A DNA stretch of 64,000 nt, from positions 105,206-169,205 of the forward strand of contig CAYGAC010000044.1 in the NCBI GenBank assembly GCA_964347865.1, written 5' to 3'. Origin of the DNA: an uncultured Thermoplasmatales archaeon. GTDB taxonomy: Archaea; Thermoplasmatota; E2; DHVEG-1. Both the position numbers and the translations under genes were made by a program. Position 1 is the stretch's first letter. Every line of letters begins with the position of its first letter. The notes under the pieces are model-generated. The model was not told where the DNA came from, ran no database searches, and worked only from the letters and a program-made list of their open reading frames with translations. This document shows positions 1,379 through 64,000 of this stretch, one piece after another.

Positions 1379-1876
1379 TTAATACATATTAAATGTGACA
1401 GATATCCAAATTCCTACATAATGTGTAATAATTATTACTAATAATGCAATAACAAGATGTTCAAGAATTGCTTTCCAAGGTTTTGCTTTTCTTAATTTTG
1501 CAGTAGTGTAACTAAAAATCGTAATAAGAGAAAGACCCCAGATTAAGCTTATAATTATCGCTGTATTTAGCGGGAGTAATAAAATAGGGATAATAAATGA
1601 TATTGAAAAAATAAATTTTGATAAAAAAGTAGACGCTGTTGATTCCCATATCTCTTTATTATCATGTTTACATTCAGATTCTTCACTAATATGAATACCT
1701 ATTGAATCAGAAAATGCATCTGCTATTGCTATTGTAATTATTCCACCAATAATTGCAATCCTTGAGTTTGTTCCAGAATATAAACCTACAATAAGGCCAA
1801 GTGTTGTGATTATTCCTGAAGTAAGGCCAAAACTGAATCCTGTTTTTATAGAATGTCTCATAAAACAGATTAACAA
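1379..1876 (-). CDS. VIT1/CCC1-family (vacuolar iron transporter-like) membrane protein
   Basis: TM segments of the form GFSFGLTSGIITTLGLIVGL and IIGGIITIAIADAFSDSIG are typical of the VIT family. 165 aa. Confidence 0.45.
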   Translation of the reverse strand: MLICFMRHSIKTGFSFGLTSGIITTLGLIVGLYSGTNSRIAIIGGIITIAIADAFSDSIGIHISEESECKHDNKEIWESTASTFLSKFIFSISFIIPILLLPLNTAIIISLIWGLSLITIFSYTTAKLRKAKPWKAILEHLVIALLVIIITHYVGIWISVTFNMY

Positions 1877-2046
1877 AATTAAATTAAAAAAGCTTTGTTA
1901 ATAATTATATATAAAATTGAAAAGCAATTTTAATTTTTTTATTCTATTAGACAAAAGATTAACCAAGCTTATTAAATAATTAGATTATTAACGATTCGTA
2001 AATTTAGAAGGGAAAATACCAAAAAAATAGGATTGGCTGGAAAAAC

Positions 2047-3501
2047 TTGAATGAAGATAATGAAAAAAAAGATAAAGAATACAAATTAATTATAGGAAAG
2101 GTACCTACTCTTACAAAAAGAAATGTATTTTTTATTTTATTAGCATTTTTTTTGCTTGCATTACTTTATTTAATTCCTACTCCAGAAGGATTATCAAATA
2201 ATGGTAAGATTATGATTGGTATTTTATTTATGGGAGGGGTTTTGTGGGTTACTGAGCCAATTCCATTAGCTGTTACTGGTTTGTTAATAATAATCATTCA
2301 ACCTATATTAGGTGTTATTCCTGCAAAGGATGTTTTTTCATCATTTGGGAACCAAGCTGTTTTTTTCTTGATAGGTGCATTTATATTAGCTGGTGCAATA
2401 GAAAAACATGGGTTGCATAAAAGAATTGCATTGAGATTACTCAGTTATTTTGAAAAAAATCCAAAAATTTTTACTTTTGGAGTAATGGCATCCTGTGCAT
2501 TTTTATCTTTTATAATGCCTGAACATGGAGTAGCTGCTCTATTTTTACCTATTGTGGCATCAATTTTAATAGCCATGAAAATTACCCCAAGAAAAAGTAA
2601 TTTTGGAAAAATATGCATGTTATCCATTGCATATGGCTGTTCCATTGGTAGTTTGGGTACGCTTGTGGGTGGTGCTAGGAATCCATTGACAATTGGAGTG
2701 CTATCTGATTTAAATCCTCCAATAATAGTGACCTTTTTCGATTGGATGACCTATTCAATGCCTGTAGTTTTTTTTTCCTTACCCTTAGTTTGGCTTGTTC
2801 TCCAAATATCGTTCCCTATAGAAATAAAAAACATTACGACTGCAAAAAAGGAGATTAATAATCAAGTGAGCATGGCTGGAAAAATGAGCAATAATGAAAT
2901 AATTGTATCTTTAATTTTAATTTTAACAATTTTTCTATGGACTTTCTTTTCATCACCAGAGTATTTTGGACTAGCGGTTATTTCAATATTAGGAAGTATT
3001 TTATTGTTTCTTACAGGAAGTATTACATGGAAAGATGTTGAAAAAAGAGTTCCTTGGGGAATAATATTGCTATATGGAGGAGCAATAACACTTGGTGTTG
3101 GTATGCAAGAAACAGGGGCTGGTGCTTGGATGGTACATCGTATATTTGATGTAACAGGTGGAAATATGTTTTTAATAATTTTAGGATTAATTATTTTTAC
3201 AATTTTATTGACAAACATTATGTCAAATGTAGGAGCAGTAGCAATACTACTACCCATAGGACTTGCCGTAGCAACTGAAATTCCAGGATTAAGTCCTCTG
3301 CTCGCTTCATTAATAATTGCTCTAAGTGGGGGATTAGCATTTATGTTTATTATTGCTACACCAGGTAATGCAATTACCTATTCTTCTGGGTATTTTTCAA
3401 GCAGAGATTTGCTTAGAGCAGGAGTTGTCGCAAATATTATTTGTATTGGAATTATATTTTTAATAGCAATTTTTTATTGGAAGGGTGTATTAGGAATATG
3501 A
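2047..3501 (+). CDS. anion permease of the ArsB/NhaD superfamily (CitMHS / DASS-like)
   Basis: 484-aa polytopic membrane protein with two internal repeats. Re-entrant-loop-like motifs GGARNPLTIG and ATPGNAITYSSG. A tandem Usp gene follows, which is common for such transporters. Confidence 0.5.
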   Translation: MNEDNEKKDKEYKLIIGKVPTLTKRNVFFILLAFFLLALLYLIPTPEGLSNNGKIMIGILFMGGVLWVTEPIPLAVTGLLIIIIQPILGVIPAKDVFSSFGNQAVFFLIGAFILAGAIEKHGLHKRIALRLLSYFEKNPKIFTFGVMASCAFLSFIMPEHGVAALFLPIVASILIAMKITPRKSNFGKICMLSIAYGCSIGSLGTLVGGARNPLTIGVLSDLNPPIIVTFFDWMTYSMPVVFFSLPLVWLVLQISFPIEIKNITTAKKEINNQVSMAGKMSNNEIIVSLILILTIFLWTFFSSPEYFGLAVISILGSILLFLTGSITWKDVEKRVPWGIILLYGGAITLGVGMQETGAGAWMVHRIFDVTGGNMFLIILGLIIFTILLTNIMSNVGAVAILLPIGLAVATEIPGLSPLLASLIIALSGGLAFMFIIATPGNAITYSSGYFSSRDLLRAGVVANIICIGIIFLIAIFYWKGVLGI

Positions 3502-3543
3502 TAAGTACAATTAATTTTAGGAGAAGGGGGATGATTAATTACT

Positions 3544-4401
3544 ATGTTTAAAAATATTTTAATTCCAATCTCTTCGGAATTTTATCAGAAAGAAATATTT
3601 CAGATAGGAGCTTTTATTGCTGAAAAATTTGATAGCACGATAACATTACTATATATTATTGAAGAAAAAACCTTAAATCAAACAGATAAACTTACAGATG
3701 TTTATAGAACTACACATGAAATAGAAGAAACAAAGGAAGATATTATTAGAAAATATATAGAATCAGCAGATAAGATTGTTTTTCATGATGCGAATCTTTT
3801 TTTCAAGAGTAAGAATATTGCATTTAAAGAAGAAATAATTGAAGGGGAATTTAGTACAGTTATAAAAGGGCAGTTGAATAAAAATCAATACGATTTAATT
3901 CTAACTGGTTTTGAAAAAGAATGTTTGTTAAATTACCGATTATTGGATGAAGTAAATATTCCCGTATGGATAGAAGCGGGCCATAGAGATAAGTCCATAC
4001 TTGCAGTTTGTTCCAATCTCGCACCTAATCAAAAAGTTCCTGATTTTAGTATTAATATTTCTAAAACCTTAGGATGGGATTTAAATTTGTTATATGTAAT
4101 CGATGTTCAAGATAATGTAGTAGTAGATGAGATGGGCAAAAGATCAGGCAAAAAGTCAGAAAAAATATTGATTGAAAAAGGTGAACAATTTATTCAAACC
4201 ATGAAAAAAAAAGGAATAGATGGACAATTAGTACAAGGTAATTTGGAAAAAGAAATTGAAAGTGCTGCTGAAAATCTTGGTGCCAAACTTGTTATAATAG
4301 GGAGAGAACAAAAAAAGAAAAATATGCTAGGTTTTCCGATAAAAAGTGTTAAAAGGAAAATGGCAGAAAGATGTAAATATTCTTTATTATTCATTAATTA
4401 A
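3544..4401 (+). CDS. universal stress protein, tandem UspA domains
   Basis: Two Usp-like halves. An N-terminal Usp start (NILIPISSEFYQKEIFQIGAFIAEKFDSTITLLYIIEE) and a C-terminal half ending in GAKLVIIGREQKK. Confidence 0.55.
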   Translation: MFKNILIPISSEFYQKEIFQIGAFIAEKFDSTITLLYIIEEKTLNQTDKLTDVYRTTHEIEETKEDIIRKYIESADKIVFHDANLFFKSKNIAFKEEIIEGEFSTVIKGQLNKNQYDLILTGFEKECLLNYRLLDEVNIPVWIEAGHRDKSILAVCSNLAPNQKVPDFSINISKTLGWDLNLLYVIDVQDNVVVDEMGKRSGKKSEKILIEKGEQFIQTMKKKGIDGQLVQGNLEKEIESAAENLGAKLVIIGREQKKKNMLGFPIKSVKRKMAERCKYSLLFIN

Positions 4402-4430
4402 TTGTGATATTATAATGTTGTCAGAGGTTA

Positions 4431-5297
4431 TTAGTGTGTTACTGTTGTGGATATAAGTTCTCCTTGAACAATTCCATTTGGCATGGCTATATCCACCTTA
4501 ACGACATTTCCAACCGAAGGAGCATAATAGTATTCAAAGAAATCACCAATTATTGAGGTGATTCTCCATGCATCAAAAGTTCCTGCTTCGACAGTGATAC
4601 TTTCTGTACTCCAGCACCAAAAGGCCAGAGGTGTCCATGAATAATGTGTTTGGAAAGTGATAGGGATATTTATCAGGCCAAATATTCCACCTAACTGTGA
4701 ATTCATTTTAATATCGACTTCTGGTAATGACCAGGTTTTTAATGCATATAATGGGAAATCAAAAATGGGTAATTTGGTACTAAAATCACCGTCTATAGAC
4801 CATTTAAAAGGAATTGGTAATGCTATAGGTAAAGGAGAGATTTTTGCCATGGTAATACCTTTAATTTCTCCAAAAACATCCTCAATTTCCAAGTCGGATT
4901 TTGAAAAATGGATAGATCCTTTTAAACGAGTCAATGCAGGATTAAATGTACCCTCAACATCTAATGTCATAGAAGATGAGGAAAGATAAATATCATAATC
5001 TGCAGTAAGTTTACCTGAAAAGTCCACCTTATAACTACTGCCGCTAGTTTCATCAACTGTCAATTTAAAGTCATCAATTTTTCCACCCATAAACATCTTT
5101 TGTCCACCGACATCATAGTCTACATTAAAATTATTTAATGTAAAAGTCCAACTATCTCCAACAACCCAAGTGGGCACATCATCATCAAAAGAAGTTGAAT
5201 TTTTTGAAATTTGATTATCTTTGATAGCATTTACCATTACTGTAAAATTAAATATTATCATCGTACAAAACATTATTACTAAGATTTTATTCTTCAT
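4431..5297 (-). CDS. secreted hypothetical protein (signal peptide, beta-rich)
   Basis: N-terminal signal MKNKILVIMFCTMIIFNFTVMVNA. The remainder is hydrophilic and Ser/Thr/Asp-rich. No recognisable catalytic motif. Confidence 0.4.
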   Translation of the reverse strand: MKNKILVIMFCTMIIFNFTVMVNAIKDNQISKNSTSFDDDVPTWVVGDSWTFTLNNFNVDYDVGGQKMFMGGKIDDFKLTVDETSGSSYKVDFSGKLTADYDIYLSSSSMTLDVEGTFNPALTRLKGSIHFSKSDLEIEDVFGEIKGITMAKISPLPIALPIPFKWSIDGDFSTKLPIFDFPLYALKTWSLPEVDIKMNSQLGGIFGLINIPITFQTHYSWTPLAFWCWSTESITVEAGTFDAWRITSIIGDFFEYYYAPSVGNVVKVDIAMPNGIVQGELISTTVTH

Positions 5298-5423
5298 ATT
5301 TTTCCCCCATGTTATATTAATATAAAAATGTGTATTTAAATTTAACGTATTTATGATTGTATAATATTAAGTGCTATTAATTTTATAAGTCAGAAAATGT
5401 TATCAATTTGCATATGAAAAGAG

Positions 5424-5810
5424 ATGAGAGATATGAATAAATATATAAAAATAGGTTTGTTTGGTTTTTTAGTTTGGCTAATACCATTCTTAGTGTCGTT
5501 TCTAATATTTGGATTTCATGAAGAATATAGATCTTTATTTGAATCGATCATGGCAGTTACTGTAACATTAGTTGTTGTCATTTTTTCATTACTTTATTTT
5601 AAAACAGTTGATAAGGAGTATAGTAAAGAGGGTATAATCATTGGTATTATATGGATAATTATCTGCCTACTAATCGATCTGATAATTATGGTCCTGCTAG
5701 AAAGTCCCATGCAGATTTCAATAGGAGATTATATGATGGATATTGGATTAACATATTTGATTATTCCTATTATTACTATTAGTCTTGGATTGACTTTAGA
5801 AAAAAGATGA
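5424..5810 (+). CDS. hypothetical membrane protein (4 TM)
   Basis: 128-aa ORF with four hydrophobic segments. Confidence 0.4.
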   Translation: MRDMNKYIKIGLFGFLVWLIPFLVSFLIFGFHEEYRSLFESIMAVTVTLVVVIFSLLYFKTVDKEYSKEGIIIGIIWIIICLLIDLIIMVLLESPMQISIGDYMMDIGLTYLIIPIITISLGLTLEKR

Positions 5811-5878
5811 ATATATCTTTATAAAAACATTTATTCCTCCATAAATTTTATATCTATGAATTCCTATAATATAATGAA

Positions 5879-6445
5879 ATGGCTGCCATTAACAGAAAAA
5901 AATACCTTGATAAACAAAGAACTGAATGGAGAAAGAGTCATAGAACTCTAAATGGAAGAATTATAATCTATCCTGATAAACCACCTGAGCATATAAATGC
6001 TCGAGCAAGTAAATTATATAACTGGTTTTGGAAAAATATACTATTAGAAATCAAACCTCAAGAAATTCCGGCAATAATCTCTGGTATCAAAGGTAGAATT
6101 AAGTCTGAAAATGATATTAAAAAGTTTCAATTTTACAGAACAATGATTGGAATGGCAGAAGATGCATATCAATTCAAGACATTAGAAGATATTAAAGATT
6201 ATGACAGAGAATTACAATTAGGAACAAAATTAATATATAATTCTGGAGAAGGGATTATTTTTCGGTGTGGAAATATATACACCACCGACTATAATGAAGA
6301 TGAAAGTAAAATAATTTTACGAGACATCGAAGGAATAATTGTAGATGCTCTTTTTTCAGAAGATAAAAAACAAAAAGAAATAGTCAGAAATAACATTTAC
6401 AAAAAATGGAATTATATTAATAAAACTGGATTCGCCAATAAATAA
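5879..6445 (+). CDS. hypothetical protein
   Basis: 188-aa ORF with a basic N-terminus and no recognisable motif. Confidence 0.35.
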   Translation: MAAINRKKYLDKQRTEWRKSHRTLNGRIIIYPDKPPEHINARASKLYNWFWKNILLEIKPQEIPAIISGIKGRIKSENDIKKFQFYRTMIGMAEDAYQFKTLEDIKDYDRELQLGTKLIYNSGEGIIFRCGNIYTTDYNEDESKIILRDIEGIIVDALFSEDKKQKEIVRNNIYKKWNYINKTGFANK

Positions 6446-6478
6446 TATAATGAGGAGGAGTTTTTTTAGGTACTTTTT

Positions 6479-6913
6479 TTATTGATGTGAATTCTGTTGG
6501 ATAGACTTGGAATTTTCGATTTCTCTAGTTAAAGCAGTTGCGAAATTTGGTATTGCATTTGCAATATCAGTAATAGTCACAATTCCAAATATTTCGTTGT
6601 TTAATATAACTGGTAATTTTTTTATTTTATTTTCCCTCATCACTTCAACTGCTTTTTCTACACTTGTTGAAGCGTGTATTGTTTTAATATTTTTAGACAT
6701 TATGTCTTTAACCTTTGTTATATCTGGATTTTTTCCATCAATAATAACTCGTTCTATAATATCTCTCTCAGTGAGGATTCCTAGAACTAGTCCTTCCTTC
6801 ATTACAACAAGACAACCTACACCCTGTTCTTTATAAATTTTACATGCCTCTAAAACTGATTCTTCACTTTCCACTGTAACAACATTTTTGGACATTACTT
6901 CACTTACTAGCAT
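6479..6913 (-). CDS. CBS-domain pair protein
   Basis: Two CBS repeats (VMSKNVVTVESEESVLEACKIY..GVGCLVV and KDIMSKNIKTIHASTSVEKAVEVM..KKLPVI). Confidence 0.7.
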   Translation of the reverse strand: MLVSEVMSKNVVTVESEESVLEACKIYKEQGVGCLVVMKEGLVLGILTERDIIERVIIDGKNPDITKVKDIMSKNIKTIHASTSVEKAVEVMRENKIKKLPVILNNEIFGIVTITDIANAIPNFATALTREIENSKSIQQNSHQ

Positions 6914-7949: not shown

Positions 7950-9665
7950 TCATAAAAAATTGATATATCTCAATAATTCTCTAGCGATTTCTTTATCATC
8001 AATCGAATTAATAAATCTCTCTTTTGTTTTATACGGTCTATTTGACAAAATTCTAGTAGCCCTTTTTTTACCAACACCGGGAATTGCCTCAAGAGTTGTT
8101 CTCGACACAGTGTTTATATGAATTGGAAATGGAATTGCTGTAATAGATCTGTACCCATAGTCTATCAATTTTACATTAAAAAATTTGTGTAAAGGGAAAA
8201 TACCTGGTATTCCAACAAGCAATGGATAGCTTCCGATTTGTCTACCAAAAGTTAATTTACCATCATAAATTTCTGTAAAAACATCTGTTAAAATTGTGCC
8301 TTTTGGAACGATTTTTTCAAGCATAGGTCGTTCAATATTTTCTCTTATTTTCTTTTTAAAACGGCGAAATTCAGTTTTATATTTTTTTACATTCTTATTT
8401 CCAAATGTAAATATTTTTGTACCTGGAATTGGTATAACCTGACGAAGATTGATTCTACGGATTTGAAGATTTTTATCACATATTTCCTTTAAAAAATTAT
8501 AATCAAATTCAAATGTTTTTTTTGTTTCTCCTTCTAATCCATAGACAAAATTCAAGCCGGGTAACAATTCAGGTAAACCATTGGCACCTCTTTTTGTGCC
8601 AATCTCATTTAAAAGTTTTATAGCTTTCATAACCTCGGCTGGTGATGCTTTGAGGTTATTTTTTTTAATAACTATAGGATCAGTACTTTCAACTCCTAAT
8701 GCAGCAACGTCACCAGAAGTGTGATACTTGATAATACTTTTGGCAATTTGTTTACATTCTTTTTGATATCTGGCAATTATTCCAGGGTTTGCATTATCAA
8801 TATGGAGAGTTTTTAAATTAGGAGCGTTATTTCTAATTCCCTTAAACAACTTTTCAATTGCAACAGGATTTGGTTTTGGAAATTCATTATCATCTGCATC
8901 TTTTGACATATATGAAAAAATACACGGTTGATTGCCAATTCGAAAATGTTGAATTGCCGATTTATAAAGTGAACTTATTTCATCTAGAATATCTTTAATA
9001 GCTCTAAATCTTGGTGGACCTTTACTCGGTTCACGACAAAAAGAGCAACCTCCAACAATACTTCTTGGACATCCTCTGTATGTTTCAATCTCTGCAATTA
9101 AATAATCAGGATAAAAGGGATGTTGATTTACTATATTTGAACCGAATATTGCATAATTCCTAATTGCATTGGGTTTCGATCTACATTTGGATGGATCTAT
9201 ATCACTAATTTTAAGATTGTTTCTTAATAAATCCACTATTACAATTTCCCCATCGCCATTTGCAATTATGTCAAAAACGTGCTTAACAACTTTCGTTTCT
9301 CTAACTTGCTTACCCCCAGATATTCCAAACCCGTATCGTGCAGCAGGTCCGGTTAATACCTTAATTGGTTTATTTAAACCATGTAAAATCGATATAATCT
9401 CATTAGGGCTTATTGGATAACCAGATAAGTATCTCCCAGGTACAGACATACCAGCAATCACAATAAGTAAATTAGAGTTAGACAGAATTTTTGAAAGAGA
9501 AATGTCTTTGCGAATTTGATCTATTGTATAGTAAAAAATCTGAGCATTTTTATAATGTTTCCAAATTGCACCGGCAATATAACGCGGATATGGACTAATA
9601 TAAGGTGGAACGCCAAGACATGTGGGCTCATCTACATATCCATCAATTATTATTGCTTTTAACAT
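7950..9665 (-). CDS. radical-SAM-superfamily Fe-S enzyme with C-terminal helix-hairpin-helix (COG1031-like)
   Basis: Cys cluster ETYRGCPRSIVGGCSFC, which is a non-canonical Cx7Cx2C spacing. TIM-barrel-like middle region. C-terminal HhH LEAIPGVGKKRATRIL. Confidence 0.5.
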   Translation of the reverse strand: MLKAIIIDGYVDEPTCLGVPPYISPYPRYIAGAIWKHYKNAQIFYYTIDQIRKDISLSKILSNSNLLIVIAGMSVPGRYLSGYPISPNEIISILHGLNKPIKVLTGPAARYGFGISGGKQVRETKVVKHVFDIIANGDGEIVIVDLLRNNLKISDIDPSKCRSKPNAIRNYAIFGSNIVNQHPFYPDYLIAEIETYRGCPRSIVGGCSFCREPSKGPPRFRAIKDILDEISSLYKSAIQHFRIGNQPCIFSYMSKDADDNEFPKPNPVAIEKLFKGIRNNAPNLKTLHIDNANPGIIARYQKECKQIAKSIIKYHTSGDVAALGVESTDPIVIKKNNLKASPAEVMKAIKLLNEIGTKRGANGLPELLPGLNFVYGLEGETKKTFEFDYNFLKEICDKNLQIRRINLRQVIPIPGTKIFTFGNKNVKKYKTEFRRFKKKIRENIERPMLEKIVPKGTILTDVFTEIYDGKLTFGRQIGSYPLLVGIPGIFPLHKFFNVKLIDYGYRSITAIPFPIHINTVSRTTLEAIPGVGKKRATRILSNRPYKTKERFINSIDDKEIARELLRYINFL

Positions 9666-9868
9666 TTTTTATTATAACATATCATTCACTAAAAAATTTA
9701 TTGTTTTAATACCTTCGATGAAATAATTAAAATTAAAAAGTTAATAAATATAATTTAACTTAATAATATAATTAATGGAATTTCTCCATGATATTAAAGA
9801 ATTTTTATCAGTTATAAATAACGAATGTTGCAAAAAATTTATATACTATTTATGTATATTTTCATAAT

Positions 9869-9930
9869 AAGGGGGTCAATTTTTTTGAAAATGATTCCTA
9901 TTACATCATTTTCCTCCCTTCTGACCCCTT
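9869..9930. repeat. stem-enclosed pyrimidine-core element, copy B (AAGGGGGTCA ... TGACCCCTT enclosing CATCATTTTCCTCCCTTC)
   Basis: Inverted repeat with a one-base bulge. Same loop core as copies A and C. Lies in a divergent intergenic region. Confidence 0.45.
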
Positions 9931-10126
9931 TATATATTCAAATTTTTTTAATATAAAAAAGGATTTAACAGATTTTTAAGAACAATATATTCACACATTT
10001 TAAATTTCGCTATTTTGTTAATTAGAATAATTTACCTTTTACTAATTAAACGAACTCTGATTTGCTCTTTGACCATGGTATTTAAATAGATAACTTTATA
10101 ACAGGGACTCTGATACGGCGTGAGAA

Positions 10127-10378
10127 TTGGGTGTAAATATGATTAACGCGTACATTTTATTAATGATGCAAACAGGAAGTTCGGAAAAAGCTATATCGGA
10201 GATGAGAAAAATTGAAAATGTAGAAAAAATCTCGGTTGTTGCAGGAGAATATGATATAGTTGTAAGGGTACGTGTAAAAAGTCTAGAAAAACTATTGAAG
10301 GTAACAAATAAGCTTCAAATGATAAATGGTGTGAAAAAAACAACAACTCAAGTAATAGAAAAAGAAATATCACTATGA
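10127..10378 (+). CDS. stand-alone Lrp/AsnC-type ligand-binding (RAM) domain protein
   Basis: 83 aa, INAYILLMMQTGSSEKAISEMRKIENVEKISVVAGEYDIVVRVRVKS, which is a typical RAM fold. Its stop overlaps the next start, implying translational coupling. Confidence 0.6.
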   Translation: MGVNMINAYILLMMQTGSSEKAISEMRKIENVEKISVVAGEYDIVVRVRVKSLEKLLKVTNKLQMINGVKKTTTQVIEKEISL

Positions 10379-55916: not shown

Positions 55917-57533
55917 TCATGTACTATATAACATCAAAATATCTAGGATCTTTGGTAGTATTTGAAAATTCTTCAATTGCCTTAAGAATAACATATTATA
56001 ACTTTTAACATATGGATAAGGTTCAATAATAGAACCATTTAGTGAGGCAATTGCTACATTTCCTGCTTTGTCAAAATGATAGAACCAAAACGTATGTTTC
56101 CTAAAAGCTTCAGACCATTGAAGTGTAAAAACATAGTCTGGACCTGAACCATTTATGATTTGATGTAATCCATTGTTGAGATACATCTCAACTCGATCCA
56201 TTCCCGATGTTGCATCAGTTGCTGAGGTAGTGAAATCTACATACCAGAATCCTCCCTTCTTATAAGTATCCCATTGAATCTCAGCTATTACCGGTGGTGT
56301 TAAATCTAAATCAAAGAAGAATTCGTTGGTTGATTCTACATTTCCGACATTGTCAACCGCAAGGTATTGAATTATAAGACTTTCAACTAATTCAAATATT
56401 ACTGTCACGTAGTCTCCTAGAATAAAATGTGGACCACCATTTATTCCGTATTGTATCTCCTTTACATCAGATAAAAAATCAATTGCCACAATTGTAATAT
56501 TGATGTAGCTTCCGATACCATAGTTTATCCATTCAGACATGGGGGGATCAAAAAAATGTATGGTAATCGGAGGAGTGTCATCAACTCCAATAAACATAGA
56601 TTTTATATTGTTATTAGGATACTCATCAGTATCAAGTGACACATTAATCTCCAACAGATAAACACTTTCATAAGCAAAATTCCAGTTGTTAAAATAAACA
56701 GTAGTTTCATTGCCAGAATTAAGTTGATTTATGGTGACATTATCATGATAAACTATAGTTTCGTTGTAAAAAATCTTAGCTGTTACAGAAAGATTTGTTT
56801 CATTATATGAACCATAGTTTTTGACAATAGCTTCAACTGCTTGAACTCCAGATTGTAAAAATAAAATATCTTGGTCCTGTGGTTTAATTCCTGCCTTTAT
56901 ACACCAGTTTCGATCTATACCAAGGTCAGTAAGTTCTTTCCAAGATTCCGAAATATTGATCCAATCGCCTTTCCCTTTAATAGCTGATTTTTCATCATTA
57001 CCAACAGGTAATTCAAATATTGAACAATTAGCCTCTACTGAGATCCATACATCTTGTTCTCCATCGAGTGTGATTGGGTTTGACAAGTTTATTTTAAACC
57101 ATCCTTCACCTGTGACATTAAAAGGTTCTAAAGTAATTAATGGCCCAGGTGATGTTGGTTTTCCAGGACCGTAGATTTTAATAAAACCAGTATGTGTCTC
57201 TGAATAGTTAGTATCATGGAAGAATTTTACTGTGGAGAGATTCCAACCCCCGTAATCACCTATTTCCGATTTTGTAATTCTTATTGCTGCTTCAAATTGA
57301 TTTTCATATGTAATACTCCAATTACGCGGATGATAATGACGGTGAAAAAAAACCCAAATATTATCTCCAAAATAACCAGAAGGTTTAGTAATATTTTTGA
57401 TACCAACATCATGATTATATGACATATAATCTAATGCGAAATTATTGTAACTCAACATCATTCCTGTACAAGGAATAACACTTAGTCCTATACACAACAG
57501 CATTATAACAAAGGTTATGATTTTTTTTATCAT
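55917..57533 (-). CDS. secreted protein with CARDB/Ig-like beta-sandwich domains
   Basis: Signal peptide. N-glycosylation-sequon-rich (NxS/T). Repeated beta-sandwich-like segments. Confidence 0.35.
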   Translation of the reverse strand: MIKKIITFVIMLLCIGLSVIPCTGMMLSYNNFALDYMSYNHDVGIKNITKPSGYFGDNIWVFFHRHYHPRNWSITYENQFEAAIRITKSEIGDYGGWNLSTVKFFHDTNYSETHTGFIKIYGPGKPTSPGPLITLEPFNVTGEGWFKINLSNPITLDGEQDVWISVEANCSIFELPVGNDEKSAIKGKGDWINISESWKELTDLGIDRNWCIKAGIKPQDQDILFLQSGVQAVEAIVKNYGSYNETNLSVTAKIFYNETIVYHDNVTINQLNSGNETTVYFNNWNFAYESVYLLEINVSLDTDEYPNNNIKSMFIGVDDTPPITIHFFDPPMSEWINYGIGSYINITIVAIDFLSDVKEIQYGINGGPHFILGDYVTVIFELVESLIIQYLAVDNVGNVESTNEFFFDLDLTPPVIAEIQWDTYKKGGFWYVDFTTSATDATSGMDRVEMYLNNGLHQIINGSGPDYVFTLQWSEAFRKHTFWFYHFDKAGNVAIASLNGSIIEPYPYVKSYNMLFLRQLKNFQILPKILDILMLYST

Positions 57534-57632
57534 CTTTTGCCTCCCTACATTTTCACATATACGTTATAATATATAAATTTTCGTAACAGATAAACAAATA
57601 TATCAGTTCTGCATTATAATTGATGGGGGAAA

Positions 57633-58785
57633 ATGAAAAGAATCCTTGCTATCGGCGTAATCCTTCTGTTTATTGGAATGAGTCTATCGTCATCCACTGG
57701 GTTTAATGTTGTAGAGCAGTCTAATACTACATCTTCTAATGGTAAAACGCTCTATGTTGGTGGTTCAGGTCCAGGGAATTATTCCAAGATACAGGATGCG
57801 ATAGACAATGCATCTTATTGGGATACGGTGTTTGTGTATAATGGAACGTATTATGAGAATATTGAAGTGTATAAATCAATAAACCTTGTTGGAGAAAATA
57901 ATAATAAAACGATTATTGATGGCAGTGATGGTGGACCTGTTGTTAAACTATCATTTGACAAGGTAAATATCAGTGGATACTATCCAGCAATCTTTTTTAG
58001 ATGCAACTTATGGTACAGGGATTGATATTTACTCAAATTATAACACCGTCTTCGGTAATATCATCTCAGAAAATAATGCTGGCATATATTTAGGAGCAGC
58101 TCATCACAACATCATCTCAGGTAATACCATATGCTCAAACAACCACGAAGGTATTCTTGTAGGGAATTCCAATAACAACATTATCACAGGTAACAAAATA
58201 TACTCAAATAAATATTGGGGCATTACCGTTGGATATGGTAGTAAAAACAATACTATAATTGATAACCACATCTCCAACAGCAGTTGTGGTATATATCTAT
58301 TTTCTACATTATATAATAATATTAAGAGTAACACCATTCAACAAAATGGTCATAACGTAGATTATCCCAATTCTGCTCTTTATCTACGCTACGCTAAATA
58401 TAATTACATATCAAAAAATATCATTTGTAATAATAACATTGGAATTTTGCTGGTGGAGAAATGTAAATTCAACATAATTTCTCGTAATCATATTAATAAT
58501 AGTAATTCTAGTATTGATTACGGTTCTGGGTTTATGTTTATTTGGGAATCAATATTCAATATTATTAAAGAAAATAATTTCATTGAAAATAACCATAAAC
58601 CTACCTTTTATTCTGCATTAATGACCTGTTTTATTGCTGTTCTTTGGCGTAATAATTATTGGGATGACTGGAGAGGATATGGACCTTATGTTATAACAGA
58701 AAAAATGTTGATTGGATCCATTCCAATATCTTGGTTTAATTTCGATTGGCATCCTGCATCAGAACCCTATGACATAGAGGTGTGA
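57633..58785 (+). pseudogene. secreted parallel beta-helix protein split by a +1 frameshift near 57975 (paralogue of 47211..48194)
   Basis: ORFs 57633..58025 and 57973..58785 are in different frames. The join KVNISGY|TIQQSF aligns with the paralogue's FLINFTIMNS. PbH1 repeats continue throughout. Confidence 0.5.
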
Positions 58786-58786
58786 T

Positions 58787-59707
58787 ATGAAGAAAGAAAT
58801 CCTTATTGCAATTGGAATAACAATCCTGTTTATTGGTGTAGGTATTCAACCAGCTTGTGCAAATGTTTCATTAGATTTGGATAATTCTGAATTTAAAGAA
58901 ATTATTTTTCAAATATGTAAAACTGATTCTATTACAAATCATTCTATTATGATATCACAGCAACAATCAGATGAATTAGAGTTTCTTATTTATAATTTTA
59001 AAGAAAAAATTGATTCTGCTGATACATTTGAACAAACTATTGAAATTTATCAAGATATGATTGAATCATTAGACAGGATTGATTTATTACCAAAGGACTT
59101 AAGTGTAAAAAAAGCAGAAGAAATAGTAATTGATGGAAATAAAAAGACATTTGATACAATTTTAACTCCTTTAATTCTAAAAGGATTAGATCTTGGTATA
59201 GATAATAATTCGCTTTGTTTACTTTCAGGTGATACGACTGAAACAACAATACTTGGTCCATCAACAATTACATCCGCAATACTCTTTTTTCTTATTGTTG
59301 GATTACTTATCGAAATGGGTTTTAAATTCAAATTATTATTCTTTTTACATTGGTTGGTTGAACCAACAATGGCTATTGGATTAATTATTACAGTTCTTAC
59401 AGTTTTTTTCCCTTTAAAATCGTTTAATTTAATTGGATATGGTCGTTACATAGAACATCCATGGGGCAGTAGTGCTTATTATCCAGCTAAAGGATGGCTT
59501 AATACGTTTGGGATATTAGGAAAAAAAACTTGGAATGGACCCTTTTATGGTCAATATCAACCCTTTCCCTATCCTTTTGAAAATCTGTTTTATACAGGAA
59601 CAATTGGTTTTACAGGATTCAACATACTTAGATTTATTGATGATGATATAAGATGTTTCTCTATTGGAACAGCTATAAGTGTAAAAATTGGAGAACAACA
59701 TCCTTAG
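58787..59707 (+). CDS. signal-anchored membrane protein, tandem paralogue 1 of 4
   Basis: N-terminus MKKEILIAIGITILFIGV. A helical acidic region paralogous to 59717..60553. C-terminal KTWNGP module. Confidence 0.45.
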   Translation: MKKEILIAIGITILFIGVGIQPACANVSLDLDNSEFKEIIFQICKTDSITNHSIMISQQQSDELEFLIYNFKEKIDSADTFEQTIEIYQDMIESLDRIDLLPKDLSVKKAEEIVIDGNKKTFDTILTPLILKGLDLGIDNNSLCLLSGDTTETTILGPSTITSAILFFLIVGLLIEMGFKFKLLFFLHWLVEPTMAIGLIITVLTVFFPLKSFNLIGYGRYIEHPWGSSAYYPAKGWLNTFGILGKKTWNGPFYGQYQPFPYPFENLFYTGTIGFTGFNILRFIDDDIRCFSIGTAISVKIGEQHP

Positions 59708-59716
59708 GAAATTAAA

Positions 59717-60553
59717 ATGAATAAGAAAATCCTAATAAGCATTGGAATATCAATCCTATTTTTTAGTGCTGCTATTGCGCCTTCTATAAATGCCAATATC
59801 AGTAAAGAGAGTGAACTGGTTGAAATTACCACCGAGATATGCGGACTTGATGGTGAAAAGCATAACGTTCAATTAACACAGGAAGAAGCAGAGGAAGTTG
59901 ATAGGTTATTTGATAATATTAAAGAAAAATTAGATAGAGCAGAGACAAGGGAAGAAGCAGATAGAATATTTGAGAAAGCCGTAGTGGAACTGGATAAATA
60001 TGGACTTCTTGGCGGTTTAAGTGTTGAAAAAGCACAAAAATTAGTCACTGGGAAATTAATAGAATCTAAAATAAATGAAAAAATACCACGATTCCTCAAT
60101 AAGAATAATCTTAGTGAGGGGGAAAATATGTATTCCCTTGTTTATGGATGCAGTAGGCCTATGATATTCATAGCTCCTCATATGTGGATTCCTGCTTTTT
60201 TTATTATGAACCATCCAATATTATTGGCGATATTTGACACATTTATTGATATTATACCGTTAATATTACTTGATTCTTTTTGGGGAATTATAATGTTAGC
60301 TGTATTACTTTCAATTGCTGCTACGGCTTTTATCCCTTCATTTAGCCCAATTAACCTTTTTTCATATATACAAGTAGGTAGGCCATTCCCTGCATCTGGT
60401 ACTTTAATTATTTATGGTATAAATGGAAAACAAAATTTTTCTAAGGATTATCATGGATTTATCTGTGGATTCATGGGGATCAAGATATATAATCCTTATT
60501 TCATTGATGTCCCGCTCTTAGGTGTTTCATATTGGTCTAAAATTATAACTTAA
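59717..60553 (+). CDS. signal-anchored membrane protein, tandem paralogue 2 of 4
   Basis: MNKKILISIGISILFFSA. Its region ICGLDGEKHNVQLTQEEAEEVDRLFDNIKEKLD aligns with paralogue 1. Confidence 0.45.
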   Translation: MNKKILISIGISILFFSAAIAPSINANISKESELVEITTEICGLDGEKHNVQLTQEEAEEVDRLFDNIKEKLDRAETREEADRIFEKAVVELDKYGLLGGLSVEKAQKLVTGKLIESKINEKIPRFLNKNNLSEGENMYSLVYGCSRPMIFIAPHMWIPAFFIMNHPILLAIFDTFIDIIPLILLDSFWGIIMLAVLLSIAATAFIPSFSPINLFSYIQVGRPFPASGTLIIYGINGKQNFSKDYHGFICGFMGIKIYNPYFIDVPLLGVSYWSKIIT

Positions 60554-60575
60554 ATTAATTATATGGAGATGTAGA

Positions 60576-61004
60576 ATGAATAAAAAAATACTCATCGGCT
60601 GTGTAATAGCAGTTGTTCTCCTGATAATATTAAATTTTCCAACTGTTATTAGTGAATCTGATGATATTATTAATGGTAAAATAAATATCTATAGGAATGC
60701 GAGAATTCAAACTAAAGGACGGACTAATGGAATGGTTTTTTGTTTTCCTGGAATCGTTAGGTCATTTGTTAGCTCAACTATTTTTCCTAATAGGATATTT
60801 ATCTTTCGACCATTCGTATATTATAGTTATATTTTTGGTTGGATAGGGTGGAATCTTCATATTAATAGCGAATATATCCCAAAAGGACATGGTTTTATAT
60901 TTGGATTTTCTGGTAAAATATGGAATGGTCCTAGGGAACTAATGGAATTTATAGAATTTAATATAGATGGTATTGGTAGACTTATCATACATATATCTGA
61001 ATGA
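60576..61004 (+). CDS. signal-anchored protein, tandem paralogue 3 of 4 (short)
   Basis: MNKKILIGCVIAVVLLIIL. C-terminal GKIWNGP module shared with paralogue 1. Confidence 0.4.
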   Translation: MNKKILIGCVIAVVLLIILNFPTVISESDDIINGKINIYRNARIQTKGRTNGMVFCFPGIVRSFVSSTIFPNRIFIFRPFVYYSYIFGWIGWNLHINSEYIPKGHGFIFGFSGKIWNGPRELMEFIEFNIDGIGRLIIHISE

Positions 61005-61036
61005 TAACTAAGTTGTATTTGATTTGGTAAGATAAA

Positions 61037-61597
61037 ATGAAGAAATATACTTACATCAGCAGTATCATAGTAGTCACTGTGCTTATTGGTATATTATTTA
61101 CCTCTGTTGTTGGACATAGAAGTATAGAATCTGATGTGAAGGCATCACCATTATTCAATATCAGAAGTAGCAGGGCGATAGATGAAGAAAGAAAGGATTT
61201 TAGGCGTGAGTATATTGGGAAGGGAATACCAACTCTGATAACAATTCCTACTAGAGATAGTATTATAGTATTGATTCGGAAGATTTTAGATGGTATAAGT
61301 AAGATGGATGAAGAAACATCCAATAGGTTTGTTAATTTCTTAATAAATCGTCATGGCAAAATGATTAAAGAAGAAAATATACCTATAATATTAAACGTAC
61401 TTCATCACTTAAAGATTAATCCAGATGAGATAAAGATCCATAATATTAATAAGATAGACAATGAACTTTATACCGAAGAAGGATTTTGTGAAACTGTAGG
61501 TTTTATTTGGGTGCCTGGGTGTATAATTGCGTTTATAATTGGTAATTTAATATGGCTGATTCTCTCTTTTGTAACAATACTTTGGGATTGTCTCTAG
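61037..61597 (+). CDS. signal-anchored protein with C-terminal TM, tandem paralogue 4 of 4 (divergent)
   Basis: MKKYTYISSIIVVTVLIGILF N-terminus like the neighbours. C-terminal TM. Confidence 0.35.
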   Translation: MKKYTYISSIIVVTVLIGILFTSVVGHRSIESDVKASPLFNIRSSRAIDEERKDFRREYIGKGIPTLITIPTRDSIIVLIRKILDGISKMDEETSNRFVNFLINRHGKMIKEENIPIILNVLHHLKINPDEIKIHNINKIDNELYTEEGFCETVGFIWVPGCIIAFIIGNLIWLILSFVTILWDCL

Positions 61598-61635: not shown

Positions 61636-61884
61636 TTATTTTGGTTTATGCTTCTCTATTTTTTTATTTGCATTCCAATTGATTATGGTAAAATAAAGAT
61701 ACACAATCGCTAGTTCTATTGCAAATATAAGAAGGAAATATCCAAAGGTTCTCCCTATTCTTATTAAATCTTCAAAATCTGAGATGTTTAATCCAAAGGT
61801 TATAAGTATAGATCCTAAAAATGGTATAAACATACCAATCAAAACAAGTATTATCATTTGAATTAAATCTCTATTTTTTCCCAT
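61636..61884 (-). CDS. small membrane protein (2 TM)
   Basis: 82 aa with two hydrophobic segments. Confidence 0.35.
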   Translation of the reverse strand: MGKNRDLIQMIILVLIGMFIPFLGSILITFGLNISDFEDLIRIGRTFGYFLLIFAIELAIVYLYFTIINWNANKKIEKHKPK

Positions 61885-61930: not shown

Positions 61931-64000
61931 TTAAGAATTTAGTTTATAGCCAATTATTGCATTTTGACCTACGGAAATTCCACCATCACCATTTGGAACA
62001 CTGTTATGAACAATAAGTTTCAATCCTGCTTTTTTTACTTGATTTTGGATCATTTCTGTTATTGGTATATTATACGAGACTCCTCCCGTCATGCCAATTG
62101 TTTTAATATTTTGATCTAAAGCAGTTTTAATTGCTATATCAGATAAACTATTCATGATCACTTTGACAATTGAAAACGCAATATCTGCCTTTTCTTGTTC
62201 ACTAAAAGGTGGTTTTATCAATTCATCAATTTGATTAAATAAATCTGTTACTTGAACAATATTATTTTTCAGATTAATATCTAAATTATATCTATTTTTA
62301 CCTATTGTCAAATATTTTTCAAGCTTCATAGCAGGTTCACCACTATAAGTCATGGTAGAACAAATATCAAGATAACTTGAAATCGCATCTAAATACCTTC
62401 CCAGACTACATGAAAGAGGAGATTTATCCATTAATTTTGTTAATATTGATGCTTCTTTTCCAGTGAAGAATTTTTCCTTTCCATATTTTTTAAATATTGC
62501 ATAAACTAACCTTTGTGGATTCATTGTTGCCATATCTCCACCTAATAAAGGGATATATTCAAGATGTCCTATTCTATCAAAACTATGAAAATCTGATAGT
62601 AACACTTCTCCACCCCAAAAAGTTCCATCAGTACCATACCCAAGTCCCTCGATTGAAATAACAACTGAATTATCTATATTATTATCAACAAGAAGTGAGG
62701 CAGCATGTGCCCAATCGTGTTGAACGTCGAAAATTGGAACAAAAAATTCAGTTGCAAATTTTTCAGCAATCTTTCTTGAATCATAACCTGGATGAAGATC
62801 TCGTACAACCGCATCAATTGTAGGTTTTTTCATAGTAAGTTTAATCAAATGACGTAAACTATCCTCTAAAAATTCTAAGGATGCATAATACTTGGAATTA
62901 CCGATATATTGTGTGGTAAAAATATTCTTATCATGAGAAATTGCACCCGTTATATTTTCATCAGCACCAACACTCAAAACACGATTATTGTATGAAACTG
63001 GAATTGGTTCGGGAACAAAACCTCGAGATTTTCTGATAAAAAATGTATTACCATTCCACAATCTTACAACTGAATCATCAATCCTGTTTGGGATTTCTCT
63101 ATTATGCAAAAGATAAACATCTGCATTCAAAGAAAAAACTTCTTCATTTTTAATCATCATTGGTTCGCCAGGTATGTTTGCTGATGTCATAACTAGCGTA
63201 TCGGATTTCAAATAGGAAAATAGAATATAATGCAAACCAGTGTATGGTAGAAAAAGACCAATTGTATTTAAACCAGGTGATGCCTCCTCTGCGTCAATCT
63301 TGTTGATAAGTACAATTGGTTTACTTTTCGACAATAATAATTTCCTTTCATCCTCTGTTATTGTGCCATATTTTTCAGCAATTTCAATAGATCTAACCAT
63401 TACGGCAAATGCTTTTTCAGGGCGTCCATACCATTCTCTAAATCTTTCAATTTCATCAATTTTACAGCATAAATGCATCCCACCCCAAGATTTAATAACC
63501 CCAATTTTTCCCTCTTCAATGTATTCTGCAAATTTTTTAACTGCATCTTTTTCACCCAAGTTGTGGTTATTTTTATCATACAATCGGAAATGTGGACCAC
63601 AAATTGGGCATGATATTGTCTGTGCATGGTATCGACGATTCAATGGATCTTTGAACTCTTTTTCGCATTTATCACATAGAGTAAATGCATCCATGGCAGT
63701 GCGATTTCTATCATAGGGAACATCATTTATGAGACTGTACCTTGCTCCACATACTGTACAATTAGTAAATGGAAAGTGATATCTTCTATTTTTTTTATCA
63801 AAAATCTCATTGTAACAGTCGTCGCACATCCCGATATCAGCTGGGATTAGTGATTGTTTCTCCCCTTTTTTGCTATGAAGTATTCGGAAATCATCAAATG
63901 TTCTGTTATCAGGTCTATAATTAATTTCAGAAATCTGAGCTATAGATGGTAAATTTTGCTTAATAAGCTGAATAAACGTATCAACGTTTTTATCGATAAC
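61931..64000 (-). CDS. hypF: [NiFe]-hydrogenase maturation carbamoyltransferase HypF (N-terminal acylphosphatase domain runs past the window end)
   Basis: Two Zn-finger motifs CxxC-x18-CxxC (CDDCYNEI...CTVCGARYS and CDKCEKEF...CPICGPHF). YrdC-like and Kae1/carbamoyltransferase C-terminal domains. The frame is open upstream of 63829 to the window edge. Confidence 0.8.
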   Translation of the reverse strand, partial: VIDKNVDTFIQLIKQNLPSIAQISEINYRPDNRTFDDFRILHSKKGEKQSLIPADIGMCDDCYNEIFDKKNRRYHFPFTNCTVCGARYSLINDVPYDRNRTAMDAFTLCDKCEKEFKDPLNRRYHAQTISCPICGPHFRLYDKNNHNLGEKDAVKKFAEYIEEGKIGVIKSWGGMHLCCKIDEIERFREWYGRPEKAFAVMVRSIEIAEKYGTITEDERKLLLSKSKPIVLINKIDAEEASPGLNTIGLFLPYTGLHYILFSYLKSDTLVMTSANIPGEPMMIKNEEVFSLNADVYLLHNREIPNRIDDSVVRLWNGNTFFIRKSRGFVPEPIPVSYNNRVLSVGADENITGAISHDKNIFTTQYIGNSKYYASLEFLEDSLRHLIKLTMKKPTIDAVVRDLHPGYDSRKIAEKFATEFFVPIFDVQHDWAHAASLLVDNNIDNSVVISIEGLGYGTDGTFWGGEVLLSDFHSFDRIGHLEYIPLLGGDMATMNPQRLVYAIFKKYGKEKFFTGKEASILTKLMDKSPLSCSLGRYLDAISSYLDICSTMTYSGEPAMKLEKYLTIGKNRYNLDINLKNNIVQVTDLFNQIDELIKPPFSEQEKADIAFSIVKVIMNSLSDIAIKTALDQNIKTIGMTGGVSYNIPITEMIQNQVKKAGLKLIVHNSVPNGDGGISVGQNAIIGYKLNS

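Follow-up and report, generated by a model that had tools for sequence, protein, structure and literature searches.

The region studied here covers positions 55917-61597 of a 64,000-nt stretch of DNA from an uncultured Thermoplasmatales archaeon (the window), which has a G+C content of about 30% and encodes an archaeal-type glutamate-tRNA ligase, an archaeal glycogen debranching enzyme, and HypF. On the plus strand, a gene for a right-handed β-helix exoprotein of the NosD-like/CASH type (57633-58785; assigned with Pfam and NCBIfam) is read as two open reading frames (ORFs; 57633-58025 and 57973-58785) and is followed by four genes designated p1 to p4. The first two, p1 (58787-59707, 306 aa) and p2 (59717-60553, 278 aa), are copies 1 and 2 of a family that was defined in this analysis from these two proteins and is termed FAM_A. 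The assignment was based on homology, an AlphaFold model, and hydropathy for p1, and on BLASTP and a FAM_A hidden Markov model (HMM) for p2. The third, p3 (60576-61004, 142 aa), is a small, probably secreted protein recognized together with two homologues, and the fourth, p4 (61037-61597, 186 aa), was assigned by BLASTP, HMM, and alignment to a further family, the p4 family. The spacers are 1 nt between the β-helix gene and p1, and then 9, 22, and 32 nt. An earlier interpretation made from the letters alone (the sequence-only reading) had described p1 to p4 as four consecutive same-strand genes with the last three spacers, preceded by a secreted β-helix gene, all of which was confirmed. It had further regarded the four as recently duplicated paralogues of a surface-exposed family, possibly one of antigens, adhesins, or cell-cell interaction proteins. 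We here describe the locus as one copy of a multi-copy Thermoplasmatota surface-protein cassette, not four copies of one gene, in which FAM_A possibly holds the β-helix protein on the cell surface.

Homology between p1 and p2 extends along their whole length, with 30% identity over 258 aa in BLASTP (E=3e-17), and this alignment contains the helical segment that had been noticed as common to both, together with a hydrophobic middle and a Gly-rich C-terminus. The claim of paralogy is hence retained for this pair. For p3 and p4, it was refuted by BLASTP, HMMs, and profile-profile alignment, a kind of check that the sequence-only reading had itself set as its criterion, and each of them represents a separate family. 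In single pairwise comparisons p3 gave E ~0.01 against p1/p2; it gave E=2.1 against the full FAM_A HMM, 1.0 bit against an HMM of the FAM_A C-terminal domain, and a probability of 0.7% against FAM_A in hhalign, which ruled out p3 as a truncated FAM_A C-domain. Pairwise comparison of p4 with p1, p2, and p3 gave E>0.2 and nothing beyond the signal peptide, and its hhalign probability against FAM_A was 12.5%, by which its helical domain was ruled out as a relative of the FAM_A N-terminal domain. The p3 and p4 profiles matched each other with 96.5% probability in hhalign, confined to the 27-aa signal peptide.

The likeness of the N-termini, on which the sequence-only reading was founded, was reproduced: over 40-60 nt at their 5' ends, p1, p2, and p3 share 73-75% identity, and a FAM_A signal-peptide profile matched p1, p2, and the β-helix protein, whose N-terminus is of the same kind, with E=6e-10 to 7e-8. 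Similarity at the DNA level was limited to these 5' ends, namely the first 40-60 nt of p1/p2/p3 and 31 nt of the β-helix gene; no other DNA repeat was present in the region, and no repeat tracts or phase-variable homopolymers were found in it. The identity of p2 to homologues in other Thermoplasmatota genomes is 33-43%, above its 30% to p1, and p1 has orthologues elsewhere with 70-81% identity. Since no DNA repeat extends past the 5' ends and p2 is nearer to the homologues of other genomes, the p1/p2 duplication appears to be old, and the proposed recent tandem duplication was abandoned. Similarly, a C-terminal (K)xWNGP module thought to unite p1, p2, and p3 was not supported, p2 reading GKQNFSKDYHG at this position and the p3 homologues reading IQNWP or IQNWL.

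The FAM_A profile extends from the signal peptide to a G-rich C-terminal sheet, and a full-length match over this span was used to define membership. Its features are an N-terminal hairpin and helices, an N..CL.aG strand, a hydrophobic hairpin, and a sheet of the form G.K.W.G.FYG ... GFTG ... G.A..V. The HMM matched p1 with E=1.4e-89 (profile positions 1-301) and p2 with E=1.4e-65 (1-296), and no match beyond the signal peptide was obtained for any other ORF of the window. Between the two, p2 is closer to the family mainstream and carries the motif ELDKYGLLGGLSVEKAQKLV. An exhaustive HMM search over 1.84 billion representatives of 50%-identity clusters returned 1,359 FAM_A representatives at E<=1e-3 and 571 at E<=1e-30, nearly all of them 270-350 aa long and matching from end to end. 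A word-indexed search with p1 alone had given 7 relatives, and the impression of a tiny family drawn from them was overturned by this exhaustive search. An indexed search with a 49-sequence profile yielded 842 proteins, of which 120 were listed. All of the listed proteins were without a Pfam domain and nearly all were unnamed or annotated as "hypothetical protein"; one carried the JGI label "YaaR (DUF327 family)", which was taken as spurious, and the single taxon named among them was "Candidatus Thermoplasmatota archaeon".

For scanning genome contigs, p1 alone as the profile gave no match and the broad 49-sequence alignment was too weakly conserved, so that a narrower FAM_A alignment was used, by which the loci were found. 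Among species-representative genomes, 13 of 13 FAM_A loci belonged to Thermoplasmatota or Thermoplasmatales metagenome-assembled genomes, the 1.9-Mb chromosome CP070798 contained four FAM_A loci, and a further 80 loci were obtained from sediment metagenomes. No described family was recognized for p1 to p4 in Pfam, NCBIfam, PHROGs, or PADLOC, in agreement with the sequence-only reading, and FAM_A had no fold match in PDB or BFVD. Our literature search found no description of it. FAM_A is hence an undescribed, widespread family, which the 13 genome loci and the one named protein place in Thermoplasmatota, and often occurs in several copies per genome. A phage or defence origin was considered and rejected, as six proteins of the locus had no PADLOC or PHROG match and FAM_A was not found in IMG/VR viral contigs.

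An AlphaFold model of p1 (medefad6a7f70) was constructed from a 122-sequence alignment, and it replaced an earlier model from 8 sequences that was poor in the hairpin. The mean predicted local distance difference test score (pLDDT) was 78.6, with low confidence for the signal peptide. The N-terminal domain (about residues 36-135) is composed of a β-hairpin (36-57) and helices (58-133) at pLDDT ~60-83, and is followed by a β-sheet domain formed by strands in 140-156 and 210-302, into which a helical hairpin (158-207) is inserted. Residues 140-306 had pLDDT >90 over most of their length and 83-89 in the hairpin. This hairpin is strongly hydrophobic in both p1 and p2, as evaluated by hydropathy, and a hydrophobic span of at least 36 aa was located at the hairpin in 101 of the 122 FAM_A members. 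Mean pairwise identity over the family is 61% in the signal peptide, 62% in the N-terminal domain, 40% in the first strands, 15% in the hairpin, and 35% in the C-terminal sheet; the signal peptide is thus as conserved as the best mature domain. An identity of 15% in the hairpin against 62% in the N-terminal domain is the pattern expected of a plain lipid anchor with a conserved interaction domain. The invariant residues are Gly, Asn, Leu, Phe, and two Cys, among which no catalytic set of the His/Cys/Arg or Ser/Asp type was present. The two Cys (p1 positions 44 and 144) are kept in at least 90% of the members and could form a disulfide bond linking the two extracellular parts. The N-terminal and β domains are predicted to be extracellular, with the hairpin embedded in the lipid bilayer, an orientation that follows from reading the signal peptides, which have small-x-small ends, as cleaved.

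The β-helix protein matched Pfam PF05048 NosD (78.1 bits, cut-off 23.6), PF13229 Beta_helix (66.4 bits, cut-off 25.9), and TIGR03804 (72.5 bits, cut-off 19.45). The model of the copper-related family, TIGR04247 NosD_copper_fam, has a cut-off of 300, to which neither the C-terminal ORF (62.3 bits) nor the N-terminal ORF (33.7 bits) came near, and none of nosF, nosY, nosL, and nosZ was present in the operon context. A phmmer comparison with PDB sequences gave no match at E<=0.01. By its sequence, the protein is best regarded as an ordinary member of the right-handed β-helix/CASH superfamily and not as a true NosD. Its signal peptide is followed by a conserved cap at the N-terminal side, a helix body that varies, and a C-terminal tail, FDWHPASEPYDIEV, that is again conserved. 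In its relatives, the cap is 45-59% identical over ~116 aa, the body is 24-36% identical and varies in length, and the tail follows the pattern NYWD.W ... (F)DW(H/R)PA.EPYDI(G/E)V. No hydrophobic segment other than the signal peptide was detected in the β-helix ORFs.

The tail is linked to the neighbouring FAM_A gene. In a non-redundant set, 33 of 43 tail-bearing β-helix genes were followed by FAM_A, against 4 of 14 without a match to the regular expression for the tail (Fisher p=0.003), and clear non-tail β-helix genes, which end in a transmembrane segment or in an ERFP-type tail, were never followed by FAM_A. The last codons of the β-helix gene, GAG GTG TGA, also provide a GAGGTG that resembles a Shine-Dalgarno sequence and lies a single base ahead of the p1 start (58771-58789), and the ..IGV/IEV-stop-ATG junction recurs in relatives; therefore, constraints at the level of the protein and of the translation signal overlap there. 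In the window, the reading frame of the β-helix gene shifts near 57975-57985, through one inserted or two missing nucleotides, so that the gene falls into its two ORFs. Frame 1 reads ...VNISG and then YYPAIFF... to a stop at 58025, and frame 2 continues with (D)TIQQS.... Alignment of 10 homologues, which read V.ISGFTIQNS, placed the switch at V.ISG|(F/Y)TIQ.S. Exact look-up of the 130-aa fragment in other assemblies returned no record, and the frameshift may mark a true pseudogene or stem from an error in the assembly.

The N-termini of the locus proteins were examined by reading. The stretches that code for signal peptides are 57633-57710, 58787-58865, 59717-59795, 60576-60655, and 61037-61115, and the N-termini of p1 to p4 begin with basic residues, continue into a hydrophobic core, and end at a small-x-small site, an order that is of the Sec type. 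Putative cleavage sites were PACA|N, SINA|N, VIS|E, and VVG|H. These N-termini are hence probably cleaved signal peptides, where the sequence-only reading had taken them as signal anchors. A pilin or archaellin identity, which had been named as a possible alternative, found no Pfam or NCBIfam match for p1 to p4, and no match to a described S-layer family or to a solved S-layer fold was obtained. Two unusually conserved signal-peptide types are common to unrelated protein families in many loci. Type 1, KK.LAVGVI.LFIG.A.APSINA, occurs in FAM_A, β-helix proteins, and others, and type 2, MNKKILIGSIIAV..L.LVSF..VVGY, in the p4 family, p3, and some FAM_A members. The signal-peptide HMM matched 47 of 82 β-helix ORFs and 41 other ORFs.

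The type 2 peptide is the only hydrophobic segment of p3, which has no transmembrane segment beyond its N-terminus and is probably a small, β-rich secreted protein. Its two homologues, with 46-47% identity, point to a narrow, lineage-restricted family that is separate from the others. p4 combines the type 2 peptide with an invariant SPLF..R, a helical domain near MDEE/MDDE, and a hydrophobic C-terminal segment with a terminal Cys, and members of its family usually have a Cys near the end. BLASTP matched p4 to ORFs downstream of FAM_A in four related loci (L006, L011, L010, and L009) with E=1e-36 to 6e-19, and the p4-family HMM gave 32 matches in the loci. Adjacent p4-like genes (L006:4242-4607 and 4632-5225; L009:9030-9503 and 9528-10130) share ~60 nearly identical N-terminal residues (the signal peptide and ASPLF.VRSSRAIDEE) and then diverge completely, which suggests a reused N-terminal module or gene conversion.

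The neighbourhood of FAM_A was surveyed in 98 related loci, in which ORFs were called crudely and classified by the FAM_A, β-helix, and p4-family HMMs. The loci had been chosen for containing FAM_A, several were near-duplicates, and those from metagenomes were partly redundant, and the counts given here are hence approximate. The upstream neighbour was assessable for 101 of 122 FAM_A genes; a same-strand NosD-like β-helix gene lay directly upstream in 42 of them, mostly with a gap of -8 to +3 nt, and a second FAM_A gene in 18, tandem pairs and triplets being common. A p4-family gene was the next one downstream of ~14 FAM_A genes. Independent gene calls with precomputed Pfam labels showed the same order, NosD/Beta_helix and then FAM_A. 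The whole arrangement recurs in locus L006, where a divergent gene for a secreted protein of ~540 aa is likewise present, and the contig of a close relative has genes of 305, 290, 128, and 174 aa ordered as p1 to p4. This synteny with L006 and the distribution of FAM_A also point to a Thermoplasmatota origin of the window. The order that recurs in Thermoplasmatota genomes and sediment metagenomes is a β-helix gene, FAM_A, sometimes a second FAM_A, small membrane proteins, and a p4-family gene. A hydrophobic N-terminus was predicted for 78% of the FAM_A neighbours at position -1, 64% at +1, and ~30% at ±4, which is the background level. Because the same gene order is present in many genomes, the genes appear to encode distinct subunits or accessories of a single module, and not variants of one protein. 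The cluster of secreted and membrane proteins behind a β-helix gene is accordingly retained from the sequence-only reading, and the free-standing antigenic or adhesin family is replaced. In L018/L019, a phage-integrase-family gene (1868-2422(-)) stands beside three β-helix genes followed by FAM_A (2584-6897), which hints that some cassettes reside in mobile or recently acquired islands.

We propose that the β-helix protein is kept on the surface by FAM_A, acting as its docking or anchoring partner in the membrane, and assign to this reading a probability of roughly 0.4. The product of the first gene would be secreted through Sec as a NosD-like β-helix without an anchor of its own, ending in the tail (F)DW(H/R)PA.EPYDI, and its gene would be translationally coupled to one or two FAM_A genes encoding ~300-aa proteins. 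After cleavage of its signal peptide, FAM_A would remain in the membrane through the hydrophobic helical hairpin, expose its conserved helical domain and β-sheet domain outside the cell, and dock the β-helix to the membrane of cells that are often wall-less in Thermoplasmatota. p4 and p3 would join this module as additional small proteins, in the membrane or secreted, and the complex may function in adhesion or glycan binding. The proposal is based on the coupled gene order, on the β-helix being anchorless, and on the combination of a hypervariable hydrophobic hairpin with a most conserved exposed domain; topology, signal-peptide cleavage, protein contact, and what the complex does are the steps that we infer.

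Several observations weigh against docking. Approximately 40% of FAM_A genes have no β-helix gene directly upstream, and some are alone or behind other secreted proteins. The β-helix gene of the window is frameshifted, for which reason this copy may not be functional. Since the tail is also borne by β-helix genes that no FAM_A gene follows (10 or more cases), it may be no more than an end cap typical of this β-helix subfamily, and the GAGGTG serving the next gene could explain part of its conservation.

The same gene pair might also be understood if FAM_A served the export, folding, or maturation of the β-helix as a dedicated factor and were not its permanent anchor, for example as a membrane chaperone or a release factor that acts on the C-terminal tail. 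Tight translational coupling fits such a factor equally well, and the conserved signal peptides across unrelated families together with recurrent C-terminal tails hint at a specialised sorting route. However, the invariant residues of FAM_A contain no catalytic set, the hypervariable hairpin speaks against a channel, and tandem FAM_A copies behind one β-helix gene are unexpected of a catalytic factor, so that we consider this explanation unlikely.

It is rather improbable that the cassette is a conflict or self-recognition module like polymorphic toxins or VARTIG of Thermococcales, in which a variable protein, the β-helix, would be secreted as an effector or for recognition, with FAM_A, p3, and p4 as its immunity or partner proteins. 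The layout resembles VARTIG, where a large secreted protein at the 5' side is followed by small, mostly transmembrane proteins (PMC8416519), and the β-helix body (24-36% identity) is far more variable than the cap (45-59%). The cassette is also multi-copy with tandem FAM_A arrays, one of its copies lying beside an integrase gene. In contrast, the β-helix protein has no toxin domain and its C-terminus is conserved instead of polymorphic, and the exposed N-terminal domain of FAM_A is the most conserved part (62%), whereas immunity proteins usually vary with the toxin. Neither a PADLOC match nor a copy in IMG/VR viral contigs was obtained for such a module.

A similarly small chance is given to the view that there is no partnership, and that these are independent surface proteins in co-regulated islands of exported proteins. 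Exported proteins are enriched at several positions around FAM_A, many secreted families occur in the loci (pyrroloquinoline quinone (PQQ) propellers, FG-GAP/PKD proteins, and immunoglobulin (Ig)-like proteins), and a sizeable minority of FAM_A genes has no β-helix neighbour, all of which is expected of such islands. They fail to explain why the stop and start codons overlap or are spaced by 1 nt in a fixed order across homologues that are only 25-40% identical. Finally, that p1 to p4 are recently duplicated paralogues forming a variable adhesin or antigen family is very improbable, for despite the paralogy of p1/p2, the similar N-termini, and the predicted export of all four products, p3 and p4 are unrelated to p1/p2 or to each other beyond the signal peptide, p1/p2 are only 30% identical without DNA likeness outside the 5' ends, and each gene has homologues elsewhere, with p1, p2, and p4 recurring in the same order.

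The docking arrangement can be compared with known surface systems. In Sulfolobales, which have no wall polymer, one operon encodes the outer exposed protein SlaA and its membrane-anchored partner SlaB, the latter being anchored through a C-terminal helix. The combination of an outer protein and a membrane partner in one operon is similar to the present locus, where the predicted anchor is instead an internal hairpin, the cassette is multi-copy and gives no clear sign of forming a lattice, and neither the sequences nor the folds match. Vlp and Vsa are variable surface lipoprotein families of wall-less bacteria, the mycoplasmas, with many surface genes whose signal-peptide-coding 5' ends are far more conserved than the rest, as was observed here. 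Unlike them, the proteins of this locus have no lipobox Cys, their genes have no repeat tracts or phase-variable homopolymers, and they constitute distinct families and not variants of one protein.

A NosD-type β-helix gene beside a membrane-protein gene is also found in the NosDFY system for copper delivery to nitrous oxide reductase, where NosY keeps canonical NosD at the membrane (summarised in PMC13452462). The operon described here has no NosF ATPase, NosY-type ABC-2 permease, NosL, or NosZ, and FAM_A is a non-homologous partner with a two-helix hairpin in place of a permease with six transmembrane segments. For NosD-like proteins of sediment communities and viruses that are without NosY-binding parts, a role in adhesion has been proposed (PMC13452462). 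They share with the present β-helix a signal peptide, an origin in anoxic sediment, the lack of canonical NosD features, and a role proposed at the cell surface or in adhesion; that work described no conserved membrane partner for them, and FAM_A was not found in IMG/VR. VARTIG is, like the present cassette, lineage-specific and begins with a large secreted protein followed by small, mostly transmembrane proteins. Its first protein has Ig domains and a hypervariable C-terminus, in contrast to a β-helix with a conserved C-terminus, and the two systems belong to different phyla and have no protein families in common (PMC8416519). What appears to be new, as judged from the sequences, is a non-homologous membrane partner for a secreted β-helix, with FAM_A, p3, and p4 matching nothing described.

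Thermoplasmatota are abundant in anoxic sediments and mostly uncultured. FAM_A, with more than 1,000 50%-identity clusters, no name, a confidently predicted fold without a PDB match, and a gene-by-gene coupling to secreted β-helix proteins, provides a testable handle on how their cell surface is built and decorated. Should FAM_A prove to be the anchor, it would account for the retention of anchorless NosD-like "adhesion" proteins on sediment archaea, and a new family would be available for Pfam and arCOG to define. If the link were only one of co-regulation, the results would still correct the reading of the locus as a recently expanded antigen family.

Upstream of the β-helix gene lies a divergently oriented gene on the minus strand (55917-57533), called as an ORF, for a secreted protein of 538 aa, which has an N-terminal signal peptide, Ig-like or OmpL47-type β-barrel domains, and a C-terminal tail NMLFLRQLKNFQILPKILDILMLYST. 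It matched NCBIfam NF047446 (OmpL47-type beta-barrel domain) with 52.7 bits against a cut-off of 40 and is, by this match, an Ig-like surface protein; the name CARDB-like, used in the sequence-only reading, was dropped because Pfam PF07705 CARDB scored 17.2 bits, below its cut-off of 22.7. The 23-aa tail of this protein matched the tail of a PQQ β-propeller in L006 (171-1817(-); E=2e-5), which occupies the same position in its locus and is otherwise unrelated. A tail of this type, (F)L(E/D)RFP..FP.L..LL.L (55917-55994 in the window; also L006, L005, L010, L015, and L016), ends unrelated secreted proteins, including Ig-like, PQQ β-propeller, FG-GAP/PKD, and β-helix proteins. None of the NCBIfam sorting-signal models matched it, and it has the look of a C-terminal signal for sorting or anchoring that has not been described before. 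A third recurrent motif of this kind, G(Y/F)(I/L)G.FFI.A.F, is located at the C-terminus of further secreted proteins encoded beside FAM_A genes (L007:3575-4426; L018:848-1711(-); L040, L052, L054, and L055), and the p3 end GIGRLIIHISE loosely resembles it.

The docking proposal can be extended, with considerable doubt, to a Thermoplasmatota-specific, non-covalent surface-display system, of which FAM_A, perhaps together with the p4 family, might be the membrane receptor. Wall-less archaea would thereby attach a changing secreted repertoire of β-helices, propellers, and Ig-like proteins to the membrane through the tails DW.PA.EPYDI, ERFP..FP.L..LL, and GYIGRFFI.A.F and the conserved signal peptides. 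Such a system would be comparable to sortase, archaeosortase, and cohesin-dockerin, though built from unrelated parts and a new fold.

The divergent spacer between the 538-aa gene and the β-helix operon (57534-57632, 99 nt), as read from the sequence, is AT-rich with TATA-like runs, and GGGGG is located upstream of the ATG at 57633. A scan for sigma-70 promoters and terminators gave no excess over shuffled sequences, its bacterial sigma-70 model not being applicable to an archaeon. The other neighbours of the operon in the window are the Ig-like protein, a major facilitator superfamily transporter, and HypF. The HypF ORF (61931-63829 (-)) aligns with TIGR00143 only from profile position 100, and is thus called without the N-terminal acylphosphatase-like part. 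Between p4 and hypF, an 82-aa ORF (61636-61884 (-)) is convergent to the operon; it had no family match and contains two hydrophobic segments.

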